DNA from: Candidatus Poribacteria bacterium
GTDB taxonomy: Bacteria > Poribacteria > WGA-4E > WGA-3G
Length of the DNA: 64,000 bases
NCBI GenBank assembly: GCA_963663765.2
Contig: CAXXUA010000004.1
Coordinates: 1,088,001 to 1,152,000 of the forward strand
Direction of reading: 5' to 3'
Shown: positions 3,655 to 57,199 of the stretch, piece by piece
Layout of the letters: the number at the start of each line of letters is the position of its first letter
Position numbering within the stretch: position 1 is the stretch's first letter
Made by a program: the position numbers and the translations under genes
The notes under the pieces: model-generated
The model's database searches: none
Told to the model about the DNA's origin: nothing
What the model saw: the letters and a program-made list of their open reading frames with translations, nothing else

Positions 3655-3854
3655 CAGGACATACGCACCTAACGGTAGACGTGCTTTGTAAGCGGGGAAT
3701 GCCAAAAGGCATTCATACCGTTGATTTGGGGGAATACCATAAGGTATTCATACCGTTGATTTCTTGATTTGGCGCTGGAAACACAAATAATGTTGAAAAT
3801 TACATCTTTTTCATCACAATTCTTGATTAAATCATGAAAACTGCGTAAGTCCTG
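3655..3854. mobile_element. MITE family C (TIR CAGGACTTACGCA) containing a REP and two tandem hairpin micro-elements
   Basis: caggacatacgca...tgcgtaagtcctg; simple ~122-bp form seen at 9108-9229. Confidence 0.8.
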
Positions 3855-4104: not shown

Positions 4105-4833
4105 CAGGACTTACGCACCTAACGGTAGGCGCGCTTTGTAGACGGGGAATGCTAAAAGGCATTCATACCCGGGGAATGCCTAATGGAGATTAATAAATAA
4201 ATTAGGTGATTCTATCTAACCCACCCTGGTAGGCGTGTTGGCACATCAAGTCCCAATAGCGCGCTTACAAAGCACCAAATCAACGGTATGGGTGTGTAAA
4301 GTTTTTGCACAGAGGTACAAACTTTTGTTCTCTTTAGTCCCGTAGGGACGCAATGTTTATAGATAGGTGTAATCACCCTCTCTTGAGTTCCGTAGGAACG
4401 ACATAGAAGAATAAACATATCGTCCCTACGGGACTAAAGAACTGGGAAGGGTACTTGTTTTCTATAAACATATCGTCCCTACGGGACTGAAGAGTATAGT
4501 TGATATTAACAATATTTCCTTATATTGACACCTATGGGTCTCTGTGCCCGCAATCTCTCATTTAATCAGTTGCGGCGGTGCACAGAGACCCCGCTCTACA
4601 ATGGAGAATGTGCAGTTTGTGCAAAAACTTTACACACCCCAACGGTATGAATGCCAAAAGGCATTCCCCGCCTACCGTGAGAGAAATATTTATTACCGAA
4701 TTAATAAATTAATCTTCATATGGCATTCATACCGTTGATTTCTTGATTTGGCGCTGGAAACCGAAAAAATGCTGAAAATTACACCATTTTCGTCATAATT
4801 CTTCATCAAATCATGAAAACTGCATAAGTCCTG
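4105..4833. mobile_element. Multi-level nested MITE/REP cluster inside a family C MITE
   Basis: C TIRs at both ends; internal family G MITE at 4290-4639 (TIR GGGTGTGTAAAGTT) with perfect 9-bp TSD caacggtat. Confidence 0.8.
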
Positions 4834-5587
4834 TTAAGAAAAAAGTGTTAGCATTTCTCTTGTGGGAGGGGTTTTCAACCCCGATTTGAGTGGAAATGAA
4901 CATAAAATCGGGGTTGAAAACCCCTCCCACAAGAGGTCAAATTCCTTAAATTGACGCTTATGGGTGCTTTGTAAGCACACCCCATAGGTGTCAACTTAAG
5001 AAAAAAGTGTTGGCATATTCTCTTGTGGGAGGGGTTTTTAACCCCGATTTGAGTAGAAATGAACATAAAATCGGGGTTGAAAACCCCTCCCACAAGAGGT
5101 CAAATTCCTTAAATTGACGCTTATGGGTGCTTTGTAAGCACACCCCATAGGTGTCAACTTAAGAAAAAAGTGTTGGCATATTCTCTTGTGGGAGGGGTTT
5201 TCAACCCCGATTTGAGTGGAAATGAACATAAAATCGGGGTTGAAAACCCCTCCCACAAGAGGTCAAATTCCTTAAATTGACGCTTATGGGTGCTTTGTAA
5301 GCGCACCCCCGATGGTAGGCGGGGAATGCCTAAATGGCATTCATACCGTTGATTTCTTGATTTGGTGCTTTGTAAGCGCACCCCGATGGTAGGCGGGGAA
5401 TGCCTAAATGGCATTCATACCCGGGGAATGCCAAAAGGCATTCATACCCGGGGAATGCCAAAAGGCATTCATACCGTTGATTTCTTGATTTGGTGCTTTG
5501 TAAGCGCGCTGGAAACCGAACAAATGCTGAAAATTACACCATTTTCGTCATAATTCTTCATCAAACATGAAAACTGATTAAGTCCTG
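4834..5587. repeat. Tandem family H MITEs (period ~163 bp) followed by REP/micro-element repeats and a family C right end
   Basis: H copies at 4981-5127 and 5144-5290 plus a partial copy at 4834-4964, separated by tgctttgtaagcacac. Confidence 0.8.
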
Positions 5588-9107: not shown

Positions 9108-9229
9108 CAGGACTTACGCACCCGACGGTAGGCGCGCTTTGTAAGCGCGCTGGAAACACAAAAAATGTTGAAAATTACATCATTTTCAACACAATTCTTG
9201 ATTAAATCAAGAAAACTACGTAAGTCCTG
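9108..9229. mobile_element. Family C MITE, uninterrupted form
   Basis: caggacttacgca...cgtaagtcctg with an intact GGTAGGCGCGCTTTGTAAGCGCGC REP. Confidence 0.8.
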
Positions 9230-10984: not shown

Positions 10985-11982
10985 CAATACCTTCGCCATT
11001 TTTGAGTGCTTCAGTTGAATGAGTATATAGTGTTGATCTACCATTGCTCTGTGATATTGTTAGGATTATATAAATAAAAATAACTTCAGGTTTTCGTTGA
11101 AGTTTTTTTATCATTGTAGGGTTATTTAGTTTTAAGAGTTTTCTGTTATTGAGATTTACTGAAAGTTAATACCCAGGTTTGGTTTCCTAACCGAACTTTC
11201 TGCATCAGTTTTAGATTATTGAAAAATGAATATCGCTCTTTAGTCCCGACAAATGCCATACGCGCATTTGGCGTTGATTTGGTAGGGTTGATATGTTTAT
11301 TTTTCTATGTCGTTCCTACGGAACTCAAGAGGGTTAGATAACATGTTTCTATAAACATATCGTCCCTACGGGACTAAAGACATGGACAAGATGGCAACAC
11401 ATAAAATTAACGACATAGCAAAATATTATCAAAAATATTGAAAACTGAATAACCCTGTTATCATAGCCTCTAATTTGACAGAATAATTTATATGCACAAT
11501 CTGGAAGAATGTGCTACAACTGCCCGCACAATCTGGCAAAATGTGCTACAACTGCCCGCACAATCTGGAAGAATGTGCTACAACTGCCCGCACAATCTGG
11601 AAGAATGTGCTACAACTGCCCGCACAATCTGGAAGAATGTGCTACAACTGTCCGCACAATCTGGCAAAATGTGCTACAACTGCCCGCACAATCTGGAAGA
11701 ATGTGCTACAACTGCCCGCACAATCTGGCAAAATGTGCTACAACTGTCCGCACAATCTGGCAAAATGTGCTACAACTGCCCGCACAATCTGGAAGAATGT
11801 GCTACAACTGTCCGCACAATCTGGCAAAATGTGCTACAACTGCCCGCACAATCTGGAAGAATGTGCTACAACTTGCCCGCACAATCTGGCAAAATGTGCT
11901 ACAATTGCCCGCACAATCTGGAAGAATGTGCTACAACTGCCCGCACAATCTGGAAGAATGTCTATTATTGGCGAAGGTATTG
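10985..11982 (+). mobile_element. MITE family A (TIR CAATACCTTCGC) containing a family B MITE and a 32-bp tandem array
   Basis: caataccttcgcca...tggcgaaggtattg; B element at ~11118-11457. Confidence 0.8.
11494..11961. repeat. Tandem array, 15 x 32 bp (GCACAATCTGG(A/C)A(G/A)AATGTGCTACAACTG(C/T)CC); the reverse strand is a GTAG-REP
   Basis: Direct reading; no spacers; last unit partial. Confidence 0.95.
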
Positions 11983-14091: not shown

Positions 14092-17000
14092 TTAGCGCGT
14101 CAGAGCGAGCTTTAGTATGGCGTATTCGGGCTCGATACCATCTGTCACTACAATTTCGCAGAAATAGATGCCGCGAGCTAAGTTTTCGCCACTGCTGGTT
14201 TTTCCGTCCCATTGAGTTCCGTGTCTACCGATGTAATTACCAGCAGACATAACTTCATTGTCCTTTAGGACTCGAACTGGGCGGAGAGTCACGTCATAGA
14301 TGACAATACTGACAGTGGATGTCCGGTTTAGAGTGAAGGAAATCCGCGTACTATCCTTAAACGGATTAGGATGATTATACGGCTTCACTGCTAATATTGG
14401 AGCGTCCGAATACTCAACAAAGAAACTGAACTGATAAACAGCGGTGTTTGCTTTGCGAGCACCATCGTTATCTTCAGGGACGTTACCCTGTTGATGCGCA
14501 TTGTCAGAAACTTCTAACTTGACCACATATTCTCCTGGTTCAAGATATTCATCAGGGAATACAGGTGAAGAAAGTGTATATAGAACTTGCGTTGCTGATT
14601 TTTGATCATCAGTAAGATCAATTGGAGCAACCAACGTTCCCCCACCTTTCTTCGGTGCTTCTATAACAAGTTTGATGGAACCGACATTCACGCCAGTTTC
14701 TGCATCGCCATAAGTTAGCGATATAGTGGGTCTGGCATTTTCTTTATCGTCGTTCCCAGTTTGCTTATTGAACGTTTGCTTATAGGTCAAACGTGCACCG
14801 TCTTGAGGTGCTGACGATGTGATGATGGGTGCAGCGGTATCAAAGTCAACCGTAAATACACCTTTCGCTGATGAAGAGTTACCATTTGTATCAGTTGCAC
14901 GAACTTCAATTGTATAAGAGCCTTCATCAAGAGGGTTCTCTGGCATGAAATCTGCGCGAGTGATACCTGTAACATCTGCTTCAGCATCGTCCATTGTACC
15001 ACCTGTAACTTCTTCGCCATTATCATCCATCACGGTGATAATGATTTCAGCTACTCCGGATTCATCATTGGCACTTGCCGAAACAGTCGGAAGTCCTCTG
15101 TGAATAGTTCCCGAAGGAGTGATAGAAGAGATAATAGGTGCGGTGGTGTCAATAACTACAGTAAATGACCAAGTGTGAACCGTTGTGCCACCCAAACTCT
15201 CTGCAATAACTTGCATAGTATGTGTGCCTGGTTCAAAACTATCTGAAATCTCAATTTGTCCATTCTTAATCTTGTCAGCTGTAATCCTATGATTTGCTGG
15301 TCCAGGATCAACACTGCTAACAAACGGAACAAACCCTTTATTCACGTCATTTTCATCGCGAATATAGAATTCAACACTCAAGATATCAGATTGTTCGTCG
15401 GTAATTACAGCAGAAATGTTTACCCAACTATCTTTGACGATACCAGATGGTCCTACTTCTGAAATGACAGGTGGTGTTGTGTCTAACATCACATTGAAAA
15501 CAACAGTTGCTTGCGCAGTCTTTTCGTTTTCATCGGTGACTTCAACCATTACAATATACTCACCAGTAGCCAAATCATCTGAAGGTGTATAAGTGAATTG
15601 ATTTTCTTCAACTTCTACAGGTGCATCTTCGCCGTTGATGGTAAATGTTGTCAACTCTACCTCTGTCATACCAGTGAAATGACCTCTGAAAATCGGTTTA
15701 CCTTGATAGTAGGTCTGACCTGCAGCAGGTGAAAGAATCGCAACACTTGGTCCTGGTATATCTACAATGAAATCAACAGAAGTCGTTGCAGACTCACCGT
15801 TTGAATCTGTCACTTTTGCAGTTGCTCTATATTGCCCATGTAATAATTCAATCTCACCTGTGAATTGATTACCGTCATGTTTAGACACATCAACATTTTC
15901 GCCACCAACTGTAAGAACTACTGCGACATCACCAACTCCTGTATACTCGCCATTGACAATTATTGAACCATTGTCATAAGAGGTGCCAGCTACAGGTGAT
16001 TGAATTGTTACTGTCGCTTCAGGATATACAATTGAGAACGTCGTTGACGCATCAGCTGTTTCGCCATTGGCATCCATCACTGAAACGGATACTGTATGAC
16101 TACCTTCACCCAACTTGTCAGATAAGTTATAAGTAAACTCATTACCATCTGGTTCAAGTACTATCACATCACCACTATCAACCGTTAGCATAACGGATAC
16201 AGGTGCGACACCAATAAACGAACCTGAAATATGACGATAGGTGTGATCATAAGTGTCGCCTGCTTCAGGAGAGGATATAGAAACTGAAGCATCAGGATAG
16301 ACAACTGAGAATGTCGTTGTCGCATCAGCTGTTTCGCCATTGGCATCCATCACTGAAACGGATACGGTATGGCTACCTTCATCCAACTTATCAGATAAGT
16401 TATGAGTAAACTCATTACCATCTGGTTCAAGTGCTATCGCATCACCACCATCAACCGTTAGCATAACGGATACGGGTGCGACACCATTGAACGAACCTGA
16501 AATATGACGGAACGTGTGATCATTAGTTCCACCCTCTGTCGGTGAAGATATGGATACTGACGCATCAGGATACATAACTGTGAAAGTTGTTGATGCTTCC
16601 GCTGTTTCGCCATTGGCATCCATCACTGAAACGGATACTTTATGACTACCTTCACCCAACTTATCAGCAAGGTCATGGGAGAATTCGTTACCTTCGGTTT
16701 TCACATCATCGGGATCTACAGCTTCACCATCTACCATCAAAGTCACAGAGACTTCACCGACACCGGTAAACTCACCTGAAATATGACGATACATGTGATC
16801 ATAAGTGTCACCTGCTACTGGTGAAGATATAGAAACTGATGCTTCAGGATAAACAACTGAGAACGTTGTTGATGCCTGAGCAGTTTCACCATTGGCATCC
16901 ATCACTGAAACGGATACTGTGTGGTTACCTTCATCCAACTTGTCAGATAATGTATGAGTAAACTCATTACCATCTGGTTCAAGTGCTATCGCATCACCAT

Positions 17001-20000
17001 CATCAACCGTTAGCATAACGGATACGGGTGCGACACCAATAAACGAACCTGAAATATGACGGAACGTGTGATCATTAGTTCCACCCTCTACAGGTGATGA
17101 TATGGATACTGACGCATCAGGATACATAACTGAGAAAGTTGTTGACGCATCAGCTGTTTCGCCATTCTCATCCATCACTGAAACGGATACTGTATGGCTA
17201 CCTTCATCCAACTTATCAGCAAGGTTATGCGAGAATTCGTTACCTTCGGTTTTCACATCATCGGGATCTACGGCTTCACCATCTACCATCAATGTCACAG
17301 AGACTTCACCGACACCGGTAAACTCACCTGAAATATGACGGAACGTGTGATCATAAGTGTCACCTGCTACTGGAGAAGATATAGAAACTGATGCTTCAGG
17401 ATAAACAACTGAGAAAGTTGTTGATGCCTGGGCAGTTTCACCATTGACATCCATCACTGAAACGGATACTGTATGACTACCTTCACCCAACTTGTCAGAT
17501 AATGTATGAGTAAACTCATTACCATCTGGTTCAAGTGCTATCGCATCACCATCATCAACCGTTAGCATAACGGATACGGGTGCGACACCAATAAACGAAC
17601 CTGAAATATGACGATAGGTGTGATCATAAGTGTCGCCCGCTTCAGGAGAGGATATAGAAACTGATGCTTCAGGATAAACAACTGAGAAAGTTGTTGATGC
17701 CTGAGCAGTTTCACCATTCGCATCCATCACTGAAACGGATACTTTATGACTACCTTCACCCAACTTGTCAGATAATGTATGAGTAAACTCATTACCATCT
17801 GGTTCAAGTGCTATCGCATCACCACTATCAACCGTTAACATAACGGATACAGGTGCGACACCAATAAATGAACCTGAAATATGACGGAATGTGTGATCAT
17901 TAGTTCCACCCTCTGTAGGTGATGATATGGATACTGACGCATCAGGATACATAACTGAGAAAGTTGTTGATGCTTCCGCTGTTTCGCCATTCTCATCCAT
18001 CACTGAAACGGATACTGTATGGCTACCTTCATCCAACTTATCAGCAAGGTCATGAGAGAATTCGTTACCTTCGGGTTTCACATCTACGGCTTCACCATCT
18101 ACCATCAAAGTCACAGAGACTTCACCGACACCGGTAAACTCACCTGAAATATGACGATAGGTGTGATCATAAGTGTCGCCTGCTTCAGGAGAAGATATAG
18201 AAACTGATGCTTCAGGATAAACAACTGAGAAAGTTGTTGACGCATCAGCTGTTTCACCATTGGCATCCATCACTGTAACGGATACTGTATGACTACCTTC
18301 ACCCAACTTATCAGATAATGTATGAGTAAACTCATTACCATCTGGTTCAAGTGCTATCGCATCACCATCATCAACCGTTAGCATAACGGATACGGGTGCG
18401 ACACCATTGAACGAACCTGAAATATGACGGAATGTGTGATCATTAGTTCCACCCTCTGTAGGTGATGATATGGATACTGAAGCATCAGGATAAACAACTG
18501 AGAAAGTTGTTGACGCATCAGCTGTTTCACCATTGGCATCCATCACTGTAACGGATACTGTATGACTACCTTCACCCAACTTATCAGATAATGTATGAGT
18601 AAACTCATTACCATCTGGTTCAAGTGCTATCGCATCACCATCATCAACCGTTAGCATAACGGATACGGGTGCGACACCATTGAACGAACCTGAAATATGA
18701 CGGAACGTGTGATCATAAGTGTCACCTGCTACTGGAGAAGATATAGAAACTGATGCTTCAGGATAGGTTACTGAGAAGGATGCTGATGCTTGTGCGGTCT
18801 TACCATTTTCAGAAGTGACCATTACAGTTACCATGTGTTCACCTTCTGACAACTTATCTGAAAGTTCAGCAGTGAACTGGTTACCATCTTTCGTCTCTTC
18901 AACGGCTTCACCATCTAACATCAAATCAATAGTAACTTCACCAACACCAGAGAACTCACCTGCGATATGACTGAATTCATGATCATAGGATCCACCAGCT
19001 GTGGGTGATTGAATAGATACTGTCGGTTCGGGATGGAAGACTGAGAAGACCACCGTTGCTTCGGCTTTCTTTTCGTTTGCATCAGTTGCTGTGACAACTG
19101 CTGTATAATCACCATCAGCTAACACAGAATCTGGAGTATAACTATCAGCATCGTCTACCAATTCAACCGCATCACCATTAATAGTAAGGGTTACAGAGAC
19201 GGGTTCAGCAACGCCAGTTGCTTTCCAAGCTATCTCAGGTGTGCCATGATCATACAATTGACCTCCAGCAGGAGAATGAATCGCTACGGATGGTCCAGGT
19301 ATGTTTACTGTGAATTCAGTAGTTGCTTCAGCAGTATTACCATTCACATCAATAACCATTAGCATGACTGTGTGGTCGCCATCACTCAACGGTTCGGTTG
19401 GTTTATAGGTAAATTCGTTACCACTGACATCCATTACGGCTTCACCATCTATAGAAAGTGTTCCACTAACAGGGTCAGCACCCGAGAACGTACCTGTAAT
19501 AATAGGTACTCCATGGTTATATTCCTGACCTGCAGTCGGTGTTGCAATGGTTGCTGTCGGTACTGGATGTTCAACTATAAATGTCAATGATGTTTGTGCG
19601 GTTAATCCGCTACCATCTGTTACCTCTACAGCGACTGTATGTGTATCTTCACCGAAACCTTCCTCAGGTGTATAAGTGAAGTTACTTCCGTCAACTGAAA
19701 TAGATTCAGAAACATCTACATCATTTACGGTAAACTTGGTTATACCTACATCACCGCCACCAGCAAAGAACCCAGTAACACTACCAGGATTTGCATCAAA
19801 TTCTTGTCCTGAAGCAGGTGCAGTAACGACAACTGTTGGGTCTATACCTTCAACAGCAAAGTTCACTGATGCTTCACCAACATTACCAAGGCTATCTGTA
19901 ACCATGACTGTGAATTGGTATGCACCACCAGCGAGTTTGTCTATGCGGGTATAAACTACAGAGTCTATATCCTGTTCAACCATTTCCGGATCAACAGCGA

Positions 20001-23000
20001 TTGGCACTGCGTCCTGTACGACCTCTTCTGGACGGAGCCGATCTAACGACACAACTGCTGTATTGTCAGCACTGATGCCAACACCTAAATCTCCATCGTT
20101 GTATTCTGCGTGGAGCGTTGGTAGGTCATTGATTGTAACCCCTTCAGTAGGCGTTACAAAAGTGATAACCGGTGCAGTATTATCCAAGTTGATATTCGCC
20201 AAGGCGAAGTCCACAAAACGTTCACGTATTTCTACGCGTCCATGTGGCGTGGTATGTTGACTTGGCAATTCCATCAGATTATTTGCAGACAGCATGAACG
20301 CATACTCGCCATCGCTTCCTGCAGTATAATCATCACCATCCCTGAACTGTCCACCAACGACAACACCGATAAGATCATCTTCAAACAAAGTACCGTTATT
20401 GACGTTGAAACTTACAGCGATTGAATCGCGAAGTGGAATTGGATCAGGAAGTTCGCCTTCAACTAGCACATCATCAACTTCAGTGACCATCAATTCCATA
20501 ATATCACTAACTCGGAAGTTTAGGACATGAACTGTGATAATAGGTGAAGCAACTTCATTTTCATGATCTTGCCAGTTTATGTGATTACCTTCATCATCAA
20601 CTTCACGATCTGCAACAAGGGCATAATAAGTGTAAGCACCGTTTTCCAGCAACCCTATATCAACAGTAATCTGTCCATCATCAAGGCTACCTTCAACATG
20701 TGATACAGAACCATCAGGTGCAGTTTGAACTAAACCGATCTTACCACCTTCATAAGTGATAGGTTCAGCAGTTGGTTCAATGGTAAATGTAAGTTCTGTT
20801 GACTCAACAGCATCATCTACAATACCACGAGCAGTGAAGCTGCCATCTTCGTTTGCTGCCAGCGAACCAACATGATCAGCAACATCCGTGATATTTGTCG
20901 GACCGAGTGGAGGCACATCATCAACATTGTCTAATGAGAATGACGCTTCTACACCATCACGTTGCATGTATTCGGTGTGTGCCTTATTCTGGGGTGTGAG
21001 AGAAATTGCTCGCACCACATACTTGTTTGTATCTAATGAGACATCACGTTGAGAATCATCACCGCGAGAGATCGTATCTTCAAGTCTGTTGATAGGTTCA
21101 TCATCTGCAGTGAATGTATCTTCCAATGCTAACTCGCGTGTATCAACAATAAACTGCCATTTCATGTAGCGTCCGGGAATTGCAACTACAGATTCGCCAT
21201 CAGCTTCGGTTCCCGCTTGGGTAATTCCGATAAGACCACCAGTTATATCGTCTAAATCATCAATACCTGGTAATTCGGATACATCCACTTCAACAGGATC
21301 AACGGCTGTACCTGTGATACGTTCCCATGTGTCATCAACGGGACGTGCTACCTCAACACGGATACCATCGGTAGGTGCTGAAGTTATATAATACGTATAC
21401 ACATTGAAAGTGAGTTCACCTTGTGGAGCACCACTATCAGGATTCACTGCACCATCTGAATTGTCAACAGTGACTGCGATCACACCTGGATCAGGTCGGT
21501 AGGTGTTCTCAACATTTATTGTGATTTCGTCACCTTCATAATCATCTGCTTGAATGTTTCCGTATTCAAGGAATACTTCATCTGAAGCAGTGTCATCATC
21601 ATAAGGTTCCGCATTGTCATACGCTAACGCATGAACTGTGAACGAATAAACGTCGTCTTCTGTCGGATTATACATCAAGTCGTACGGATCTTTGGAATGA
21701 TTTTGGAGATACTTGTCATTGTAGACCTCCTCGTCATCATCCGCCAGAGTGCCGACATCAATCGTTACAGTAAATACACCACTACCTTCAGCTGTTTCGG
21801 TAACTTCACCGATAATAGCACCTTCAGGTAACGTTGTTAGCAACTTCACGCCGCCATCTTTGTAAGTATGACGGTCTGCGGTTGGTGTAAGTGTTAATGT
21901 AACTACCGGAGATTTGACGGTGGGATCGTATTTGTCAACGAGTGCACTTACTGTGTAAGTTCCGTCACCGTTGTCAATTAACATTGCATCAGCAGGTTCA
22001 ATGCTTGTTACAACGACACCTATTGGTCCGAGTGGTGCAACATCATCATCGTTATCTACTGAGAACTGTTCTGTATAATCTTCACCCATTAGGATCGGTG
22101 AGATGTCAGTACCATCTGCACCAACAGCATAGGCACGCACCATATAACGATTCTCATCAAGTGAGGCGTCACGGGCAGCAGGACTATCCACAGTTATGGT
22201 ATCATCCAGTAGCGTTGTATCCACAGTAATTATCCATTTGAGGTAACTACTGGTAGAATCTATATGGAGAGTATCGTCTACATAGACTTCTGCTAATGTT
22301 TTACCTTTAAACATAATCGCTTCTGTCACGCCACCGTCCATACCAGCAGAATCGTCAACAGCAACTTCACCAATCTTAATTGGCGTATCATCACCTGGAC
22401 GCATAACTTCAATGCGGATAGATTCTGTTGCTGGAACAGTACGTCGTGGTGTATATCCCTCAAGCATTATTGTGCCTTGCGGTGCACCACTATCCTGGTT
22501 TTTCATAACAACGGAATCTGTATCAACGTCTACGACTAATACTACAGGATCAACAGGATGTACATCAGCATCAAGATTTATAGTGAATGCATCTGAAATC
22601 CTTAAGTCTTGATCCTCTGTTAACGCATCAAAATCCACACCATTTATGTCTATTGGATGTTGGAGTGCGTTGGTAGTAACCGTGCGAACAAATACCGTAT
22701 CTCCTGCTTGCAACAAATCTTCCAAGGCATTGCCAACTTCCCAAAGGATTGTCCGAGTGTCACCAGCAGCACCTTCGCCTTCAACTAATTCTACTTCATC
22801 AATTGACTGCCAAACACCGTCAGCCTCTAAATCAGAATAATATACTGTAATTGACGCATTAGGATGTTGTGGATCGCGATTGAGTGGATGAACAGTACGT
22901 TCATCAATCGTAACCGTCAATGTTACATCTCTGGCATTGTCATAGATTACACCAAATTCATAGGCATCGTCTTTGCCATTATGGTTAATGTCACCAAGAG

Positions 23001-25884
23001 CTGCCATTGTAACGCTTGAACGATCATATTGATATGGTACAATTCTTATATGTTGCGGTTTAACATGAGAACCGATATTGAGGAGTGGATCAATACCCAT
23101 GGCACGAACACCATAGTCACCGATCAATAGCGGTAATTGATCACCTTGAATGGGGAACTTATAGATACGTTCAGGTTCAAAGGTAAATGGAATCAGGTCA
23201 ATGTCATCTACGACAGCACCTAATAGATCCGTCAACAATGTGTATTGGTTATTAGTGAGCTCAATACCTAAGAATCCTCTAAGTTGATCTACAACCAATG
23301 CTTGTAAATCCTGTGCTTCTATTACCCCTGGAACTCCAGTCTCTAAGAGCCCTAAGAGTGATCTTAGTGCAAAATCGCGAATATCAATTTCTATGTCGGA
23401 TCCAGGCACACTCACTTTGAAACTATCATCTAATGAAGATGGAAATCTTTCGTTGATGAGATCCCAGATATCAGATGATAGAATAGATGCTTCAATCGTT
23501 AAAGGCAACCAAGTGCCTACTGGCTCTCCATTTTCATTCAGATCAATTATTTGATAAAGAAGAAAACCTTCATCAACTCCGATCTCACCAGGATCTGTTG
23601 TGCCTTTAATAGTCAACAAAGACGAAGTGCCTTCAACAGGAGCAGTAGCAACATACGCACCATTATTGTTCAAGTAACCTGTGGTGTCTGCGTTTGCTGT
23701 ACCGATAGTAAGTTCTGCTTCTGGCGCTGAAGTGTCAGTTTCAAACCCTACAGCAATGTGGTCAACCGCTTCTTCATCAGCATTGTAAACGACCGCTTCT
23801 AAAGTATATGCACCGTCATCCATTGAATCAATATTTGCATACCAGAGCGATTCTATTTCATAATCAATCAAGGGTACGGTGAAAACAGACGCTAACATAG
23901 GATCGTAATTTGATTCAAAATTATTTGTTAACTCATTAGCATTTCGCAACAATAAGTTTTGCAGTTTACGAAGTTCCTGTCCTGGAATGGTTAGATCTGT
24001 GTTTCCAGCAGAAAGAAGCGGAAGAGCTATTCTGACAATTTCCGCTACGACATCATCAGTAAACATCGCATCAAGGATACCTCGATCTGCAATTTGAAGG
24101 TTGCGCGGATCAGGCATCGACCAACTATTGATAGTATACTCCCTATTCGCATCAGCGACTGTCGTGGCATCTCCACTTGGTGAAAGCAAAGCTTCTGCAA
24201 GTGCCTCACGATTAACAATAACTAACTTCACAGGTTCAACCAGAGTGACTTCAAAGTAGTAATTCACATTTCGTCCAGGAATAATACCTACATCACCTTC
24301 CCAAACGACACCTTTATCAGTCGTTACTGGATTCATTTGAAGTGCGATATATTGTTCTTCCAATCCTTCTTGTGAATACCGAAGTACAACCTCAGAAAAA
24401 AGCTGATTCCCTAATGCTGGCCAAGCAGGTAAATTCGCGGCAGCAAGTGTCTCTTCCAATCGGAAGGTATAAGGGATTGTATCTGATTGGAATAAATCTG
24501 GGGCGATCCGCTGACCTTGTTCCGCCTCAACGCCATTGAGCCTAATCTGAACGCTACCACCTTCAAGTGTTGATGGTACGCGCACGTACAAGTTCAAATT
24601 ATCTCTTGTTGAGAATTTTGACGTGTTAGGTGTATCATCGTAAAGAGCTTCAGACAATGTCGGTGTAATTCCGTTACCAAAGTTCTCAAAATCTAACCCC
24701 GGTGGTTCATCAGCGAAAATAGAGAACGCTTGACGCGAAGTTAAATTTTGTCGAATCGTTTCTTCAGGAATAATTCCAGCTGGGATTTGTGCTATAAGAA
24801 ACTCAACCGCAGGTTCAACTAAAGCGTCGGCCGCGGCAGAATCAAGTCCGGCAGCTGCAATAAGATCACGAATAAACGCTCTACCATGAATCCTATTCAA
24901 TGAAAGCCCACCAAGTCTTGACTCACCATTTAGGTTTGAAGTAACAAGATCAACTGAGGGCAATTCTCCATCTGTCGGAGGTTCCGGCTTATCTGGAGGA
25001 TCTGGGGGTTCTGTTGGAAACTCCGCAGTTGCAAATCTAATCACAACGGTTGCAGGGGTTGAATCCGCAGTTCCATCATTGGCTATTAGCGTTAATGTTA
25101 CAGTGGCACCAGCGATGGTAGGCATCGCTGCCGTGGGAGCAGTCTGCGTAATCGTCACACTGCCACCGGTAAGCGTCCCACTCGGAATACTATAGTATCC
25201 CGCTGCGCTTGCTGGGTCCACCGAAATAGAACCTGTTACAGTAACAGCATCTCCGTTAACATCCGCAGTAGCAAAAGCAACATCAAACGAACCGCTTTGA
25301 GCGGCTGTCGGACTTGAGGTTCTAATAGATACTGTCGGAGGTTCCGGATCTGGGTCCGGACCTGGATCTACACCAAGCACAGTCTGAATTGTTTCTGAAT
25401 TAGTTGGTGTCAGGGATGACTTCCAAGTCTCATCTGCAAAAAGCAAACGTAGAAGTTCTAAAACTGCTACTGTATCCTGCATCAAAGTCCGAACATTTGA
25501 ATCCATTAAAACTGTTCGGATACCTTCGTCATCTGTAAGTAGCCCTATGACCTCGGGAGTTGCGCCTGGTACAACGGCAGTTATTAAGGCTGGATTACTA
25601 AGTATCGCATCAAGTGCCTTTCCAAAATCACCTTCATATAACAAATCAATGAGTGGTTTAGCATCAATTAAAGTTTCAGGATCGCTTAGTTTTGCGAGAA
25701 CTTGAACAGTCAAATCCTGGAGATCAGCGCGCAAAAGCGTTTCATTAAAATCATCATACACCATTTGGGCGAGTTCTTCAGAAGTTGGATCCGCATCTTG
25801 CCCAAACACAGTGTCTGAAATAATTGTACTGTGAAAAACACACAATATAAAAATCAAAAAACAAACGAGTGTTCGTTTTTTCAT
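14092..25884 (-). CDS. Giant (~3930 aa) acidic Ig-like-repeat surface protein with FlgD-Ig/T9SS-type C-terminal domain
   Basis: Start MKKRTLV after GAGGAGG; signal peptide; Big-like repeats; C-terminal YNHPNPF..IYDVTLRPVRVL..WDGKTSSGENLARGIYF. Confidence 0.85.
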   Translation of the reverse strand: MKKRTLVCFLIFILCVFHSTIISDTVFGQDADPTSEELAQMVYDDFNETLLRADLQDLTVQVLAKLSDPETLIDAKPLIDLLYEGDFGKALDAILSNPALITAVVPGATPEVIGLLTDDEGIRTVLMDSNVRTLMQDTVAVLELLRLLFADETWKSSLTPTNSETIQTVLGVDPGPDPDPEPPTVSIRTSSPTAAQSGSFDVAFATADVNGDAVTVTGSISVDPASAAGYYSIPSGTLTGGSVTITQTAPTAAMPTIAGATVTLTLIANDGTADSTPATVVIRFATAEFPTEPPDPPDKPEPPTDGELPSVDLVTSNLNGESRLGGLSLNRIHGRAFIRDLIAAAGLDSAAADALVEPAVEFLIAQIPAGIIPEETIRQNLTSRQAFSIFADEPPGLDFENFGNGITPTLSEALYDDTPNTSKFSTRDNLNLYVRVPSTLEGGSVQIRLNGVEAEQGQRIAPDLFQSDTIPYTFRLEETLAAANLPAWPALGNQLFSEVVLRYSQEGLEEQYIALQMNPVTTDKGVVWEGDVGIIPGRNVNYYFEVTLVEPVKLVIVNREALAEALLSPSGDATTVADANREYTINSWSMPDPRNLQIADRGILDAMFTDDVVAEIVRIALPLLSAGNTDLTIPGQELRKLQNLLLRNANELTNNFESNYDPMLASVFTVPLIDYEIESLWYANIDSMDDGAYTLEAVVYNADEEAVDHIAVGFETDTSAPEAELTIGTANADTTGYLNNNGAYVATAPVEGTSSLLTIKGTTDPGEIGVDEGFLLYQIIDLNENGEPVGTWLPLTIEASILSSDIWDLINERFPSSLDDSFKVSVPGSDIEIDIRDFALRSLLGLLETGVPGVIEAQDLQALVVDQLRGFLGIELTNNQYTLLTDLLGAVVDDIDLIPFTFEPERIYKFPIQGDQLPLLIGDYGVRAMGIDPLLNIGSHVKPQHIRIVPYQYDRSSVTMAALGDINHNGKDDAYEFGVIYDNARDVTLTVTIDERTVHPLNRDPQHPNASITVYYSDLEADGVWQSIDEVELVEGEGAAGDTRTILWEVGNALEDLLQAGDTVFVRTVTTNALQHPIDINGVDFDALTEDQDLRISDAFTINLDADVHPVDPVVLVVDVDTDSVVMKNQDSGAPQGTIMLEGYTPRRTVPATESIRIEVMRPGDDTPIKIGEVAVDDSAGMDGGVTEAIMFKGKTLAEVYVDDTLHIDSTSSYLKWIITVDTTLLDDTITVDSPAARDASLDENRYMVRAYAVGADGTDISPILMGEDYTEQFSVDNDDDVAPLGPIGVVVTSIEPADAMLIDNGDGTYTVSALVDKYDPTVKSPVVTLTLTPTADRHTYKDGGVKLLTTLPEGAIIGEVTETAEGSGVFTVTIDVGTLADDDEEVYNDKYLQNHSKDPYDLMYNPTEDDVYSFTVHALAYDNAEPYDDDTASDEVFLEYGNIQADDYEGDEITINVENTYRPDPGVIAVTVDNSDGAVNPDSGAPQGELTFNVYTYYITSAPTDGIRVEVARPVDDTWERITGTAVDPVEVDVSELPGIDDLDDITGGLIGITQAGTEADGESVVAIPGRYMKWQFIVDTRELALEDTFTADDEPINRLEDTISRGDDSQRDVSLDTNKYVVRAISLTPQNKAHTEYMQRDGVEASFSLDNVDDVPPLGPTNITDVADHVGSLAANEDGSFTARGIVDDAVESTELTFTIEPTAEPITYEGGKIGLVQTAPDGSVSHVEGSLDDGQITVDIGLLENGAYTYYALVADREVDDEGNHINWQDHENEVASPIITVHVLNFRVSDIMELMVTEVDDVLVEGELPDPIPLRDSIAVSFNVNNGTLFEDDLIGVVVGGQFRDGDDYTAGSDGEYAFMLSANNLMELPSQHTTPHGRVEIRERFVDFALANINLDNTAPVITFVTPTEGVTINDLPTLHAEYNDGDLGVGISADNTAVVSLDRLRPEEVVQDAVPIAVDPEMVEQDIDSVVYTRIDKLAGGAYQFTVMVTDSLGNVGEASVNFAVEGIDPTVVVTAPASGQEFDANPGSVTGFFAGGGDVGITKFTVNDVDVSESISVDGSNFTYTPEEGFGEDTHTVAVEVTDGSGLTAQTSLTFIVEHPVPTATIATPTAGQEYNHGVPIITGTFSGADPVSGTLSIDGEAVMDVSGNEFTYKPTEPLSDGDHTVMLMVIDVNGNTAEATTEFTVNIPGPSVAIHSPAGGQLYDHGTPEIAWKATGVAEPVSVTLTINGDAVELVDDADSYTPDSVLADGDYTAVVTATDANEKKAEATVVFSVFHPEPTVSIQSPTAGGSYDHEFSHIAGEFSGVGEVTIDLMLDGEAVEETKDGNQFTAELSDKLSEGEHMVTVMVTSENGKTAQASASFSVTYPEASVSISSPVAGDTYDHTFRHISGSFNGVAPVSVMLTVDDGDAIALEPDGNEFTHTLSDKLGEGSHTVSVTVMDANGETADASTTFSVVYPDASVSISSPTEGGTNDHTFRHISGSFNGVAPVSVMLTVDDGDAIALEPDGNEFTHTLSDKLGEGSHTVSVTVMDANGETADASTTFSVVYPEASVSISSPEAGDTYDHTYRHISGEFTGVGEVSVTLMVDGEAVDVKPEGNEFSHDLADKLDEGSHTVSVSVMDENGETAEASTTFSVMYPDASVSISSPTEGGTNDHTFRHISGSFIGVAPVSVMLTVDSGDAIALEPDGNEFTHTLSDKLGEGSHKVSVSVMDANGETAQASTTFSVVYPEASVSISSPEAGDTYDHTYRHISGSFIGVAPVSVMLTVDDGDAIALEPDGNEFTHTLSDKLGEGSHTVSVSVMDVNGETAQASTTFSVVYPEASVSISSPVAGDTYDHTFRHISGEFTGVGEVSVTLMVDGEAVDPDDVKTEGNEFSHNLADKLDEGSHTVSVSVMDENGETADASTTFSVMYPDASVSISSPVEGGTNDHTFRHISGSFIGVAPVSVMLTVDDGDAIALEPDGNEFTHTLSDKLDEGNHTVSVSVMDANGETAQASTTFSVVYPEASVSISSPVAGDTYDHMYRHISGEFTGVGEVSVTLMVDGEAVDPDDVKTEGNEFSHDLADKLGEGSHKVSVSVMDANGETAEASTTFTVMYPDASVSISSPTEGGTNDHTFRHISGSFNGVAPVSVMLTVDGGDAIALEPDGNEFTHNLSDKLDEGSHTVSVSVMDANGETADATTTFSVVYPDASVSISSPEAGDTYDHTYRHISGSFIGVAPVSVMLTVDSGDVIVLEPDGNEFTYNLSDKLGEGSHTVSVSVMDANGETADASTTFSIVYPEATVTIQSPVAGTSYDNGSIIVNGEYTGVGDVAVVLTVGGENVDVSKHDGNQFTGEIELLHGQYRATAKVTDSNGESATTSVDFIVDIPGPSVAILSPAAGQTYYQGKPIFRGHFTGMTEVELTTFTINGEDAPVEVEENQFTYTPSDDLATGEYIVMVEVTDENEKTAQATVVFNVMLDTTPPVISEVGPSGIVKDSWVNISAVITDEQSDILSVEFYIRDENDVNKGFVPFVSSVDPGPANHRITADKIKNGQIEISDSFEPGTHTMQVIAESLGGTTVHTWSFTVVIDTTAPIISSITPSGTIHRGLPTVSASANDESGVAEIIITVMDDNGEEVTGGTMDDAEADVTGITRADFMPENPLDEGSYTIEVRATDTNGNSSSAKGVFTVDFDTAAPIITSSAPQDGARLTYKQTFNKQTGNDDKENARPTISLTYGDAETGVNVGSIKLVIEAPKKGGGTLVAPIDLTDDQKSATQVLYTLSSPVFPDEYLEPGEYVVKLEVSDNAHQQGNVPEDNDGARKANTAVYQFSFFVEYSDAPILAVKPYNHPNPFKDSTRISFTLNRTSTVSIVIYDVTLRPVRVLKDNEVMSAGNYIGRHGTQWDGKTSSGENLARGIYFCEIVVTDGIEPEYAILKLALTR
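16020..18767 (-). repeat. 10 near-identical intragenic repeats of ~270-279 bp (Ig-like domains)
   Basis: YP(E/D)ASVSISSP units, spacing measured at 270-273 bp for several. Confidence 0.9.
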
Positions 25885-26598
25885 TAACTCTTCCTCCTCG
25901 TTAAGTCTAAACGAAATATAGACTAAATACTGAAGTTTTAGATGGGCAACCGAGAAACACAACAAAAACGACCGGAGGTAGGTGTTTGCCCATCCAATTC
26001 TAACATCCTACTACCAAGAAGTTAATATTTTCTTCAATGTACGCAAATATACCCCGGCAAAACCTTAATCAAGGCCAAAAGCAAGCAAAATCGGACACCA
26101 TAATTTTGTTCTTGACCCACAAACTTCTATTTCAGTGGTTAACATAACAGGTTCCAGGGTATTTTGCAAATAATATTTATTTAACTAAAAGCAGACTATA
26201 ATATAAGGACATCTGACATTTTAACAATAGTGACTTAATTAAGCAAGCATTTTAATCAGGCGTTTTCTTTTAGAAATTCTGTAAAATCCGCAGCCTATTT
26301 GATTTTAACGATTAAATTGCAATCAATATCTAATATAATACCATAATTAAGAAAACATGTCAAATCAAAATATCATAATTCTGTTTAATTATTACACGTT
26401 TTTTGACACTACATAATTAATTCTAATTGCTATCTTACAATTATACATTATTATTGTCAACTAATAAATGTATGAGCAATTTTAGTAACATTTTCTATCA
26501 CTCACACTCGCTCAATTTTGAAGGTTTGTTAATATTGAAACGTCAATAACACTTTAGACGTTACGCAATTTTTACAATTAACAAATACTTATCATTAA

Positions 26599-27154
26599 CA
26601 ATACCTTCGCGAATAATACAGGGTTATTTAGTTTTAAGAGTTTTCTGTTATTGAGATTTACTGAAAGTTAATACCCATGTTCGATTTCCTAACCGAACTT
26701 TCTGCATCAGTTTTAGATTATTGAAACATGAACATCGCTCTTTAGTCTCGCCAAATGCCATACGGGGAATGCCTTAATGGCATTCATACCGTTGATTTGG
26801 CGCATTTGGCGTTGATTTGGTAGGGACTAAAGAACTGGACAAGATGGCACCCTATAAAATTAACGACATAGCAAAATAATATCAAAAATATTGAAAATTA
26901 AATAACCCTGGCCAATAATAGACATTCTGTCAGATTGTGCGGGCAGTTGTAGCACATTCTGCCAGATTGTGCGGGCAGTTGTAGCACATTCTGTCAGATT
27001 CTATCGTCAAATTAGACGCTATGATAAATAAAAATACTTCAACGAAAACCTGAAGTTATTTTTATTTATGCAATCCTAACAATATCACAGAGCAATGGTA
27101 GATCAACACTATATACTCATTCAATTGAAACACTCAAAAATCGCGAAGGTATTG
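26599..27154 (-). mobile_element. Second family A MITE, inverted relative to 10985-11982, with its own family B insertion (26619-26910)
   Basis: caataccttcgc...gcgaaggtattg; B flanked by gcgaataata/gccaataata; only ~2.5 units of the 32-bp repeat. Confidence 0.8.
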
Positions 27155-27180
27155 AGTTAATATACATTGTTGTTTTTTAG

Positions 27181-27370
27181 CAGGATTTACGCAAAAACGG
27201 TAGGCGGGGAATGCCTAAAGAAGCATGCGCGTGTGGCATGCTCCATGATTCATACCGTTGATTTCTTGATTTGGTGCTTTGTAAGCGCGCTGGAAACCCA
27301 TAAAAAAGCTGATAATTGCATCATTTTCATAATAATATTTGATAAAATCAAGAAAACTGCGTAAGTCCTG
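27181..27370. mobile_element. Family C MITE
   Basis: TIRs with perfect 5-bp TSD tttag. Confidence 0.8.
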
Positions 27371-27402
27371 TTTAGATGAAAGTTTCATCTCTTCATTCTG
27401 TT

Positions 27403-33341: not shown

Positions 33342-33503
33342 CAGGACTTACGCACACAACGGTAGGCGGTGAATGCCTAAAGAAGGATGCGCGTATGGCA
33401 TGCTCCATGATTCATACCGTTGATTTGGTGCTTTGTAGGCGGGGAATGCCAAAATGCATTCCCCGCCTACAAAGCACGCCTACCGTTGGGTGCGTAAGTC
33501 CTG
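33342..33503. mobile_element. Fold-back (palindromic) family C derivative
   Basis: The same C left arm at both ends, symmetric about the hairpin at 33441-33464. Confidence 0.75.
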
Positions 33504-34940: not shown

Positions 34941-35394
34941 TATATACCTCCTTAACAAAATGAATACTGGTTAGTTTATCATACCAACGTTTAATTTACA
35001 ATGGAATTTGTGTTCTGGAAAGGATATTCAGTTTCCTAATTTTTGGATTATTCAAAAAAGAAACCCCCGGTAGGAGCGACCCGGGGAATGCTATTTAGCA
35101 TTCATACCGTTGATTTGCCGGTCGCGATTTTCACAGAAAACGACTAAAATGCCAAAAACTAAATAACCCTGGTGTTCTGGGGTGTGTAAAGTTATTTGCA
35201 CGGTGTTGCCAGAAACTTTGCACACTCAATATGGTTGAGAACTGCTATCGACTTTGCTAAACTTTAGACACGTTTATCGCTAACAGCATCATTTCTCAAA
35301 GAGAATGGTAGCGATTCCAACTCAACCCACTCATCAACGATGGTTGCGAAGCTAATAAACATCAGCATTCCAGCTATCCTATGGTCATTTGATA

Positions 35395-42216: not shown

Positions 42217-42381
42217 CAGGACTTACGCACCCAACGGTAGGCGTGCTTTGTAGGCGGGGAATGCCAAAAGGCATTCATACCGTTGATTTCTTGATTTGGC
42301 GCTGGAAGCATAAATAATGTTGAAAATTACATCATTTTCATCACAATTCTTGATTAAATCATGAAAACTGCGTAAGTCCTG
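42217..42381. mobile_element. Family C MITE with one micro-element insertion (42256-42298)
   Basis: TIRs; compare with the empty form at 9108-9229. Confidence 0.8.
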
Positions 42382-45881: not shown

Positions 45882-45955
45882 CAGGCCAGGAGGGATTCGA
45901 ACCCCCAACATCCGGTTTTGGAGACCGGCGCTCTACCAGTTGGAGCTACTGGCCT
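45882..45955 (-). tRNA. tRNA-Trp(CCA)
   Basis: Cloverleaf; anticodon arm ccggt-ctCCAaa-accgg. Confidence 0.97.
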
Positions 45956-45966
45956 GTGGTATAAAA

Positions 45967-46119
45967 TTACCTTGTCTCCTTATGGAGTGTATGTTTCCGA
46001 CAGAAACGACAATACTTCTTGCGTTCATATCGATCCTGCTGTGTCCGACGATTACGCGTCGTAATATAATTGCGCCGCTTGCAATCATCACATGCTAAAG
46101 TTACAATGTCTCTGGGCAT
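45967..46119 (-). CDS. rpmG: 50S ribosomal protein L33 (Zn-ribbon type)
   Basis: Manual translation [50 protein letters not shown] (below the ORF-track cutoff). Confidence 0.95.
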
Positions 46120-46150
46120 CGTTTTTTACCCCCCTTCTTAATATCAGTGA

Positions 46151-46223
<73 letters not shown>

Positions 46224-46240
46224 AAACGTCCTAAGGTACA

Positions 46241-46313
46241 AGCGGGAGACGGGATTCGAACCCGCGACGCATGGCTTGGAAGGCCAATGCTCTACCAGCT
46301 GAGCTACTCCCGC
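46241..46313 (-). tRNA. tRNA-Gly(TCC)
   Basis: Cloverleaf; anticodon TCC. Confidence 0.97.
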
Positions 46314-46325
46314 AGAAAAAACCAA

Positions 46326-46407
46326 TGGGGGCGGACGGATTCGAACCGCCGTAGGCATAGCCAACAGATTTACAGTCTGCCCTTTTTGACCGCTCAAGCA
46401 CACCCCC
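46326..46407 (-). tRNA. tRNA-Tyr(GTA)
   Basis: Cloverleaf with long variable arm; anticodon GTA. Confidence 0.97.
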
Positions 46408-46415
46408 AAAATAGA

Positions 46416-46487
46416 AGCTGACGAGAGGAATCGAACCTCCAACCTAGTGATTACAAATCACTCGCTCTACCGTTGAGCCACGTCAGC
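46416..46487 (-). tRNA. tRNA-Thr(TGT)
   Basis: Cloverleaf; anticodon TGT. Confidence 0.97.
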
Positions 46488-56342: not shown

Positions 56343-56425
56343 TGCCCCCGACTGGACTCGAACCAGCATGCCAACTAAGGCACAGGTCCTTAACCTGCTG
56401 TGTATACCAATTCCACCACAGGGGC
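56343..56425 (-). tRNA. tRNA-Leu with anticodon AAG
   Basis: Class II cloverleaf; anticodon arm GCAGG-TTAAGGA-CCTGT; A73 discriminator. Confidence 0.92.
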
Positions 56426-56509: not shown

Positions 56510-57199
56510 CTTGTAGGAGAGGTTTTCAACCCTGATTTCCACCTCTTCTGTAGGTGGGGTAGGGATTTTAACATCTTGTGGGAGGGGTTTTCAACCCCGA
56601 CAGAAGCCAAACGCGCTTCTGACGTTGATTTGGATTTTATGTGCATTTCCACTCAAATCGGGGTTGAAAACCACTCTCACAAAAGAAAATGCAAACAATA
56701 TTTTCTTAAGTTGACACCTATGGGTACTTTGTAAGCGCACCCCGACGGTAAGCGGGGAATGCCTAAATGGCATTCATACCGCTGATCTGGTGCTTTGTAA
56801 GCGCACCCCCGATGGTAGACGTGCTTTGTAAGCGCGCACCCGATGGTAGACGTGCTTTGTAAGCGCACCCCCGATGGTAGGCGTGCTTTGTAAGCGCGCA
56901 CCGATGGTAGACGTGCTTTGTAAGCGCGCACCGATGGTACGCGTGCTTTGTAAGCGCGCACCGATGGTAGGCGTGCTTTGTAAGCGCGCTCTTGGGACTT
57001 GATGTACCAGCGCGCTTACAAAGCACGCCTACCAGGGTAGGTTAGATAAAATTACCTAATTTATTTTTTAATCTTCATATAAGGGGGTTAGGGGGGTTAA
57101 AAAGTCGCTATTTCAGTTATTTAACCCCCTAAATCCACCTTATCAGTGGGACTTTAAGAGGCAATGTGGAAGTCATAACTATTTATCAAACTCACGTTA
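56510..57199. repeat. REP/MITE cluster including a ~29-31 bp tandem GGTAGGCGTGCTTTGTAAGCGCGC array and an IS982-type right end
   Basis: About 7 units at 56790-56990; ttatcaaactcacgt at ~57183-57197. Confidence 0.8.

Follow-up and report, generated by a model that had tools for sequence, protein, structure and literature searches.

How does a repeat of about 35 nucleotides (nt) come to lie, each time with the same edges, inside many otherwise unrelated repeats of one bacterial genome? The question is raised by a 64,000-nt stretch, here called the window, of a metagenome-assembled genome (MAG) of Candidatus Poribacteria, which are sponge symbionts (GCA_963663765.2, contig CAXXUA010000004.1, positions 1,088,001 to 1,152,000; G000:C4:1088001-1152000 in the numbering used here). 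The MAG, G000, comprises 6.35 Mb in 15 contigs, has a G+C content of about 41% and is 97.8% complete. An initial annotation of the window, made from the letters alone, had pointed to a family of small hairpins inserted in repetitive extragenic palindromes (REPs). We followed up its principal member, unit A, and find that it is a discrete insertable module with exact edges. Most of its present copies are passengers, multiplied by the repeats that carry them and by local tandem expansion.

Unit A consists of a G and two further nucleotides, a 7-bp stem enclosing a loop of 4-5 nt, a 4-nt linker, and an invariant tail of 10 nt whose last base is G. The whole unit measures 34-36 nt, pieces consisting of the head only measure 27 nt, and a long form carries at least one added 8-nt repeat of the tail core. 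The type copy and its parts lie as follows.

3694-3728, plus strand: unit A, short form, 35 nt, type copy; at site 2 of a host MITE (miniature inverted-repeat transposable element)
3694-3696: G and two further nucleotides
3697-3703: 5' arm
3704-3707: loop
3708-3714: 3' arm
3715-3718: linker
3719-3728: tail

The pattern of head, loop and arm is matched nine times in the window and not once in any of 100 shuffles. The predicted single-stranded DNA (ssDNA) fold of the units is the expected hairpin, with energies of -5.9 to -7.2 kcal/mol and z-scores of -1.9 to -2.9 (-7.2 kcal/mol and -2.68 for the type copy). A search of the window against Rfam 15 at the gathering score returned six tRNAs and no match to unit A.

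The edges were established from empty sites. The 10 bases on each side of the whole unit were joined, and the joined 20-mer was sought in G000, which yielded an exact empty copy for 32 of the 60 commonest contexts (for example 37 filled and 108 empty, 39 and 54 in the loop of a sister unit, B, and 3 and 18). A junction moved by one base in either direction fits none of the 60 contexts. Many contexts for which no empty copy exists belong to arrays, where the left neighbour is another head. For a second set of contexts, 461 units from G000 and from loci of other species were pooled, of which 116 lying behind another unit were dropped and the remaining 345 fell into 60 clusters. A C precedes the unit in 57 of the 60 clusters; one position further upstream stands C in 34 and G in 17, and the tail core is followed by G in 37. 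Sequence shared at the junctions amounts to 0-1 nt, no target-site duplication was found at the unit insertions, and the ends of the unit are not inverted repeats of each other. The exact insertion behind a C without duplication that had been read from the window alone thus recurs genome-wide. The accompanying idea that insertion regenerates a C followed by G holds for the left junction and fails for the right one, which reads G followed by G.

Which sites are used? The unit lies 2 nt behind the GTAG tag of REPs; it occupies the loop of sister B and those of three further hairpins of GTAG type; and it is seen in the centres of other palindromic repeats and in one unique hairpin, the sites in other species including short tandem repeats. 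Loops and feet of other hairpin repeats predominate among its dozens of unrelated sites. Within GTAG hosts it is always on the tag-bearing strand. A GTAG tag stands 2 nt upstream of at least 178 of 742 heads, and this tag belongs to the host REP, which also occurs empty. Filled and empty contexts therefore bear out the proposed insertion at two positions of one REP and in other REP families, as well as the constant orientation relative to the host; the link of orientation to the direction of flanking genes is weak at best. G001 and G024, two genomes of the same genus, lack a 19-mer of the host REP1, yet they carry 81 and 89 exact copies of the unit, respectively, in other repeats. Moreover, sites dominated by one loop variant also harbour minor ones that are several letters different (10 of 43 at a second host, REP2; 13 plus 5 of 67 in the loop of B).

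The hairpin is under selection, as judged from the pattern of substitutions. Among the 742 heads counted in G000 (tolerance up to 2+1 mismatches), 382 have the consensus stem, and two compensated double variants occur 26 and 22 times, compared with 4-9 times for each one-sided variant. At least ten further compensated stems stand ahead of the same tail in G000 and in other species. In an alignment of 18 stems, 126 of 126 cells pair and changes on both sides are seen at four of the seven pairs (reached by 0 of 500 shuffles), the 18 rows having been chosen beforehand for intact stems and their loci found through the 3' arm, so that the pairing count is biased towards structure. Loops vary freely across species; the stem, the linker and the tail stay constant, with the reservation that the search word included the 3' half. 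Stem covariation with variable loops, first noticed on a handful of copies, is in this way upheld on a much larger set.

The tail reaches beyond unit A. Its 8-nt core occurs 1279 times in G000, where base composition would predict about 352; the linker of unit A stands before it 483 times, and the hairpins of three sisters, B, C and D, 131, 16 and 12 times. In the sisters the stems are different ones, likewise compensated, and the loop has 7 nt; A to D share the tail without variation. Sisters B and C occupy one host context each. The window holds the following copies of the two, in addition to a copy of B that contains unit A and is given further below; sister B had been recognized at both places, and C is added here.

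11248-11281, plus strand: sister B, 34 nt; compensated stem differing from that of A, loop of 7 nt, 10-nt tail as in A; occupies the loop of another palindromic repeat
56599-56632, plus strand: sister C, 34 nt; third compensated stem and the same tail; within a long palindromic repeat

How widely is the unit distributed? G000 contains, besides the 742 heads, 478 whole units; a 20-mer of the unit has 338 exact copies there and 517 with up to two mismatches. Exact matches to the same 20-mer came from 23 of the 24 further genomes of the genus that were searched (0-164 copies per genome) and from none of 16 genomes from other genera of the order. A looser tail pattern gave 1-424 matches per genome in all 19 genomes of the genus that were searched, G000 included, compared with 0-6 per genome elsewhere in the order and 0-3 for a reversed control. 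Viral contigs yielded no match to the 20-mer, and all but one of 80 matches listed came from records named Candidatus Poribacteria. By these matches the family is confined to a single genus of Poribacteria. Full-text literature searches on palindromic or interspersed repeats in Poribacteria brought up no account of such a family. Within G024, a stretch of 114 kb (4351201-4465104) holds about 35 of the 89 exact copies of that genome.

In the window, the unit is present at every place that the initial annotation had listed, and several pieces can be added or delimited more closely. The copies other than the type copy are given below.

3729-3771, plus strand: unit A in the long form (43 nt), its stem a compensated variant; extra tail octamer at 3764-3771; head-to-tail behind 3694-3728
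4144-4170, plus strand: head-only 27-mer without tail, the next head following directly; the tail-less extent is new
4171-4186, plus strand: 5' half of a unit A whose loop is interrupted by some 535 nt of other nested repeats; previously missed
4722-4750, plus strand: 3' half of the same split unit (3' arm, linker and two tail octamers)
4276-4289, minus strand: tail and linker of a reverse unit A, split by a MITE at 4290-4640
4649-4669, minus strand: head (stem-loop) of the reverse unit begun at 4276-4289
5321-5364, plus strand: unit A, long form; site 1 of a GTAG-tagged REP
5395-5492, plus strand: three-head array, heads joined through one extra C, followed by two tail octamers
26750-26819, plus strand: sister B holding a nested unit A (26764-26799) at the C^G of its loop
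27206-27273, plus strand: unit A variant with an enlarged loop that contains a second small hairpin, and a long tail; host MITE site 1
33368-33427, plus strand: unit A, enlarged-loop variant with a short tail; host MITE site 1
33441-33464, no strand assigned: perfect palindrome made of the unit 5' arm and its own reverse complement; not listed before
35083-35117, plus strand: unit A, its stem a compensated variant; the host is a GTAG-tagged REP from another family, which holds the unit in a loop that is one base short
42256-42298, plus strand: unit A, long form; site 2 of the host MITE 42217-42381
56754-56789, plus strand: unit A with intact hairpin and mutated tail

At 35083 the junction had been described as off by one, and the loop of the host hairpin is indeed one base shorter than in its empty copies. 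The small palindrome at 33441-33464 is the centre of a long perfect one (33428-33480), formed by the right half of the host REP plus the unit 5' arm, together with their reverse complement, which looks as if synthesis had turned back at the unit loop. The MITE at 4290-4640 is 351 nt long, has long inverted ends and is flanked by an 8-bp target duplication (4282-4289 and 4641-4648); its ends are seen again at about 3900 and 35180 in the window. Elsewhere in the window, an open frame of 3957 aa occupies 14092-25965 on the minus strand, and the tRNA genes lie in a cluster of five at 45882-46487 (minus strand) with a sixth at 56343-56425.

Copies of the unit are either single or in direct arrays. 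Scored by their numbers of heads and tail cores, arrays in G000 are distributed as (1,1) in 252 cases, (1,2) in 80, (2,2) in 63 and (2,1) in 5. In a different genome of the genus, seven whole units stand in tandem with a period of 35 nt (G024:C1:1044373-1044602).

To what extent has the unit merely travelled with its carriers? The host MITE family has 13-bp inverted ends and about 306 copies in G000, and it carries the GTAG REP with its two insertion sites, both of which are free in one copy in the window.

9108-9229, plus strand: empty host MITE, 122 nt; the sites between 9133 and 9134 and between 9146 and 9147 are unoccupied

Among 274 MITE copies with a left end that could be found, 140 have both sites empty, 69 carry a unit at site 1 alone, 29 at site 2 alone and 36 at both; 10 copies that were not parsed are counted within the filled classes. 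Every context is dominated by a loop variant of its own (87 of the 132 at REP1 site 1, 40 of the 47 at site 2, 44 of the 67 within the loop of B, and 30 of 43 and 14 of 23 in others). Filling of site 2 goes together with a host base change 3 nt upstream, and where an empty REP differs behind its GTAG tag, the filled form has the two bases that precede the unit in REP1. Because variants are bound to contexts, the MITE is mobile, site 2 changes together with its neighbourhood and sisters B and C have one context each, a small number of founding events, with later spread alongside the host, explains the majority of copies. This does not hold for all of them, as the unit also occupies many unrelated contexts, including those in species that lack REP1.

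Comparison with relatives shows the carriers coming and going. The two closest genomes, G016 and G045, are 83-92% identical to G000 over aligned stretches, and their intergenic DNA cannot be aligned, so that presence or absence of a whole MITE is all that can be read. The whole MITE 42217-42381 is absent from the orthologous place in both, with a 2-3 bp repeat at the junction, and the repeat nest 26595-27378 (783 nt) corresponds to 31-63 nt there. A comparison of filled and empty alleles among relatives, suggested at the outset as a check, accordingly succeeded for whole MITEs and produced no difference that consists of the unit alone. The seven closest metagenome loci around a neighbouring gene, with 77-82% DNA identity, showed no unit nearby and included no strain of the same species, and contigs from Logan for four sequencing runs (one of them RNA) end at each repeat nest, none bridging a unit.

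Gain and loss can also be approached within the genome. On a tree of 252 MITE backbones, filling of site 1 is unclustered (69 changes, against 70.9 +/- 3.4 in shuffles) and filling of site 2 is clustered (24 changes against 40.9 +/- 1.6); with backbones of about 122 nt the tree is a weak one. Of 17 sets of identical multi-copy backbones, six show both states at site 1, and since the backbones with and without the unit are identical, the gain or loss must have been recent and precise. Insertion, precise excision and conversion between host copies would each give such mixed fill states.

What, then, placed the unit in its founding contexts? We tentatively favour, with a probability of about 0.4, that it was moved as ssDNA by a hairpin-binding nuclease that nicks and rejoins in an HUH-like manner, the enzyme being left open. 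The reasons are the exact edges, the lack of duplication, the strict C, the preference for hairpin loops, the compensated hairpin, the invariant 3' word at a fixed distance from it, and a size too small for double-strand synapsis. The ends of IS200/IS605 elements have a hairpin with a cleavage site about 10 nt on its 3' side, and these elements insert 3' of a short word without duplication. By analogy, the unit seems to be built like one end of such a hairpin-recognized ssDNA element. A nuclease acting in trans would bind the unit hairpin in single-stranded DNA and place two nicks, one 3 nt before the hairpin and one 11-14 nt behind it, where the tail ends; the released piece would be rejoined 3' of an exposed C in another extruded hairpin.

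Several observations weigh against nicking and rejoining. The unit has one hairpin only, compared with the two of IS200/IS605 ends. The tight link between variant and context implies that true insertions are rare, and neither G016, G045 nor the metagenome loci provided a filled and an empty allele at an orthologous place that differ by the unit alone. Arrays made of heads only, and the coupling of head and tail numbers, do not follow from insertion of whole units; the three-head array at 5395 is a case in point. Head-only 27-mers joined through an extra C, and the (2,2) rule, fit neither nicking and joining nor passive carriage in the forms given here.

The search for an enzyme adds to these difficulties. 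G000 encodes Y1_Tnp domains in four IS200/IS605 tnpA genes, one RAYT gene and one fragment, and has 43 hits to the TnpB domain, from which it follows that most TnpB elements stand alone. The RAYT gene (G000:C4:621598-622074), of about 159 aa from its likely start, is framed on both sides by arrays of one GTAG REP; the locus as a whole (G000:C4:620161-623487) has a REPtron-like layout. The framing repeat is a different one from the unit, and no unit lies within 900 nt of the gene. Nor was a unit found at the ends of the four tnpA-tnpB copies or in the flanks of 38 TnpB regions. A survey for Y1_Tnp in 40 genomes of the genus gave no match in G001, G010 and G024, which have 81-94 exact copies of the unit, or in G042; the domain was present in G003 with 0 copies and in G009 with 21 hits and 3 copies. 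Exact copies relative to copies with up to two mismatches number 89/201, 81/144 and 94/145 in genomes without Y1, and 72/210, 164/364 and 338/517 in genomes with it; the exact share is 0.44-0.65 in the former and 0.34-0.65 in the others, so that copies in genomes without Y1 are not visibly older. Replication-linked strand bias was not seen in the closed genome G022 (34 plus and 39 minus, mixed throughout, with dnaA at 1.96 Mb). In G000 the orientation of the host REP2 matches the local GC skew at 37 of 68 loci, a test of little power because GC skew is weak in this genome. REP2 shows a near-absolute strand bias of its own over stretches of 0.2-1.8 Mb on contigs C3, C4, C5, C6 and C15, with switches within four contigs, and this bias follows neither local GC skew nor the position of dnaA.

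Other candidates were also considered. Profile searches of G000 found neither RVT_1 nor the IS110 DEDD domain; Y2_Tnp (IS91) gave no match either, with a control that was likewise silent, which makes that result uninformative. Rpn-like nucleases (TIGR01784) were rejected as movers, as they bear no relation to unit copy number. Long copies enclosing a gene, which had been proposed as a place to look for the mover, were sought among 195 orphan heads, of which 25 have a free 3' arm within 6 kb; none of those inspected looked autonomous, the intervals holding nested MITEs or unrelated DNA. As the resident Y1 (HUH) transposases fail the tests of co-occurrence, the actor may be another protein conserved in the genus. 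The specific proposal that it is neither a Y1 transposase nor a reverse transcriptase, and pastes hairpin plus 10-nt word 3' of an exposed C in other hairpins, would make the unit the minimal substrate of a hitherto unrecognized mode of DNA movement; we consider it rather unlikely.

The strongest competitor of the nick-and-rejoin reading grants the unit no dedicated mobility at all. The unit would be a passenger of mosaic repeats, copied by gene conversion or template switching at hairpins, lost by precise deletion, spread by transposition of MITEs and expanded in tandem, with new contexts arising from rare illegitimate joins. Much of what is described above agrees with this: the loop variants that dominate particular contexts, the base change 3 nt upstream of a filled site 2 (as co-conversion would give), the two REP1 bases carried ahead of the unit in filled REPs, the single contexts of B and C, the clustering of site 2 fill on the backbone tree, the absence of the host MITE at the orthologous place in two relatives, and the failure of every tested enzyme to co-occur with the unit. 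The passenger reading is harder to reconcile with 60 context clusters that share exact edges, a preceding C in 57 of them and a junction overlap of 0-1 nt, or with a unit that is the same letter for letter in species with different hosts. Different variants at one site also speak against it, and the compensated stem and invariant tail argue for recognition of the unit itself. On balance we hold passive carriage as the sole explanation to be somewhat unlikely.

Could the nuclease be one of the resident Y1 (HUH) transposases, that is, the RAYT or the TnpA of the four IS200/IS605 elements, moving the unit as ssDNA? This was one branch of the initial proposal, and the setting invites it: the genome has a RAYT framed by GTAG REP arrays, four tnpA genes and the many TnpB hits; the unit lies mostly just behind the GTAG tag or in REP loops, on the tag-bearing strand; and it has exact edges, no duplication, and a hairpin with a 3' tail. 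The distribution across the genus, however, separates gene and unit. In addition to the missing Y1_Tnp in three genomes with 81-94 exact copies and its presence alongside 0-3 copies, no RAYT homologue was found in G001, G010, G014 and G024 (81-106 exact copies), and homologues 88-91% identical to that of G000 occur in G020 and G007, which have 2 and 8 copies; RAYT distribution is thus unrelated to copy number. Since, furthermore, the unit flanks no RAYT, tnpA or TnpB gene, shows no more decay in genomes without Y1 and has no replication-strand bias, we regard this version as improbable.

The other branch, in which the unit is transcribed and a reverse transcriptase writes the copies into DNA, as was reportedly proposed by Elhai for the cyanobacterial repeats discussed below, is hardly credible here: a compensated hairpin would suit RNA too, and one-sided variants that allow a G-T or G-U pair on the written strand outnumber the others by 24 to 14 (not significant, the copies being non-independent), but RVT_1 was not found in G000, the genome with the highest copy number, which leaves this route without an enzyme, and the Rfam matches in the window are to tRNAs only. 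A CRISPR repeat, an integron attC site and a CGTC-tagged REP were dropped on sequence, there being no spacers, no fit to an R-box and no such tag, respectively.

How does the unit compare with systems already known? MITEs are among its hosts (42217-42381 and 4290-4640), and it differs from them in having neither terminal inverted repeats nor a target duplication. Bacterial interspersed mosaic elements (BIMEs) are mosaic clusters of REPs in enterobacteria, in which modules alternate in orientation with fixed linkers. Like BIMEs, the unit forms modular hairpin clusters with a variable number of modules; unlike in BIMEs, its modules are nested and in direct orientation, and single ones occur in many unrelated hosts. 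BIMEs are mentioned in excerpts of PMC3733652 and PMC2884548.

The resemblance to the ends of IS200/IS605 elements extends to insertion 3' of a short word without duplication, a hairpin with a conserved word about 10 nt on its 3' side, and a size too small for double-strand synapsis. Palindrome-associated transposable elements (PATEs), gene-less derivatives of elements of the IS200/IS605 family, share this likeness. In contrast to those elements, the target word of the unit comprises only 1-2 bases, one hairpin takes the place of two, the ends do not match those of the resident elements and orientation has no link to replication.

With the GTAG REPs and REPINs, as portrayed in excerpts of Di Nocera et al. 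2013 (PMC3733652) and Bertels & Rainey 2011 (PMC3116915), the unit has in common that it is a small intergenic hairpin with short unpaired ends, covarying stems and hundreds of copies. It also shares their setting, lying among GTAG REPs, often directly behind the tag, in a genome with a RAYT. The differences are that its own 35 nt carry neither a GTAG nor a CGTC tag (by the definition in the excerpted text of PMC3733652), that it is inserted in REPs instead of standing beside them, and that it occurs singly or in direct arrays and not in the inverted doublets of REPINs, with one palindromic derivative at 33441-33464. Unlike in REP-RAYT systems, the unit neither flanks a RAYT nor co-occurs with RAYT or any Y1 gene across the genus.

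The family offers a clean handle on the mover of such repeats, with hundreds of copies, exact empty sites, compensated sub-families, one invariant tail, and some 40 genomes of the genus in which copy number ranges from 0 to over 400. For work with sponge-symbiont MAGs there is a practical side as well, since repeat nests of this kind break short-read assemblies, as seen in the Logan contigs.

Precisely inserting repeats some tens of bases long entered the record in 2008, and no identified mover of them is known to us. The closest precedent are the small dispersed repeats (SDRs) of Elhai, together with the REPs, and unit A is a variant of this already described, yet mechanistically unsolved, type of small repeat. 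The term "candidate new mobile system" used at the outset was therefore too strong, very small, nested and precisely inserted repeats having been described in cyanobacteria. SDR1-8 of Nostoc punctiforme and its relatives are said to be 21-27 nt long, to lie nested within one another as well as in MITEs and short tandem repeats, to insert at a fixed point of a short host word, to form compensated hairpins and to be restricted to one coherent group of genomes. According to excerpts of papers citing Elhai et al. 2008, SDRs of about 20 bp are possibly mobile, and SDR5 inserts precisely inside the HIP1 octamer. HIP1 sites number 29 in the 6.35 Mb of G000; for this reason, and because the records matched by the 20-mer bear the name Poribacteria with one exception among those listed, a cyanobacterial origin of the DNA, which the look of the repeats had suggested, was rejected. 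The unit departs from the SDRs, by their reported description, in belonging to another phylum, in its length (34-36 nt, or 27 nt for head-only pieces), in a 10-nt 3' tail common to sub-families with different stems, and in a target made up of one C that G usually follows, most often within hairpin loops. By the same description it agrees with them in measuring tens of nucleotides, in being non-coding, in precise insertion without duplication, in nesting within sister units, MITEs and short tandem repeats, in its compensated hairpins and in its occurrence in one group of genomes. If unit A is indeed moved by an enzyme that is neither a Y1 transposase nor a reverse transcriptase, the same mechanism may underlie the small dispersed repeats of cyanobacteria.

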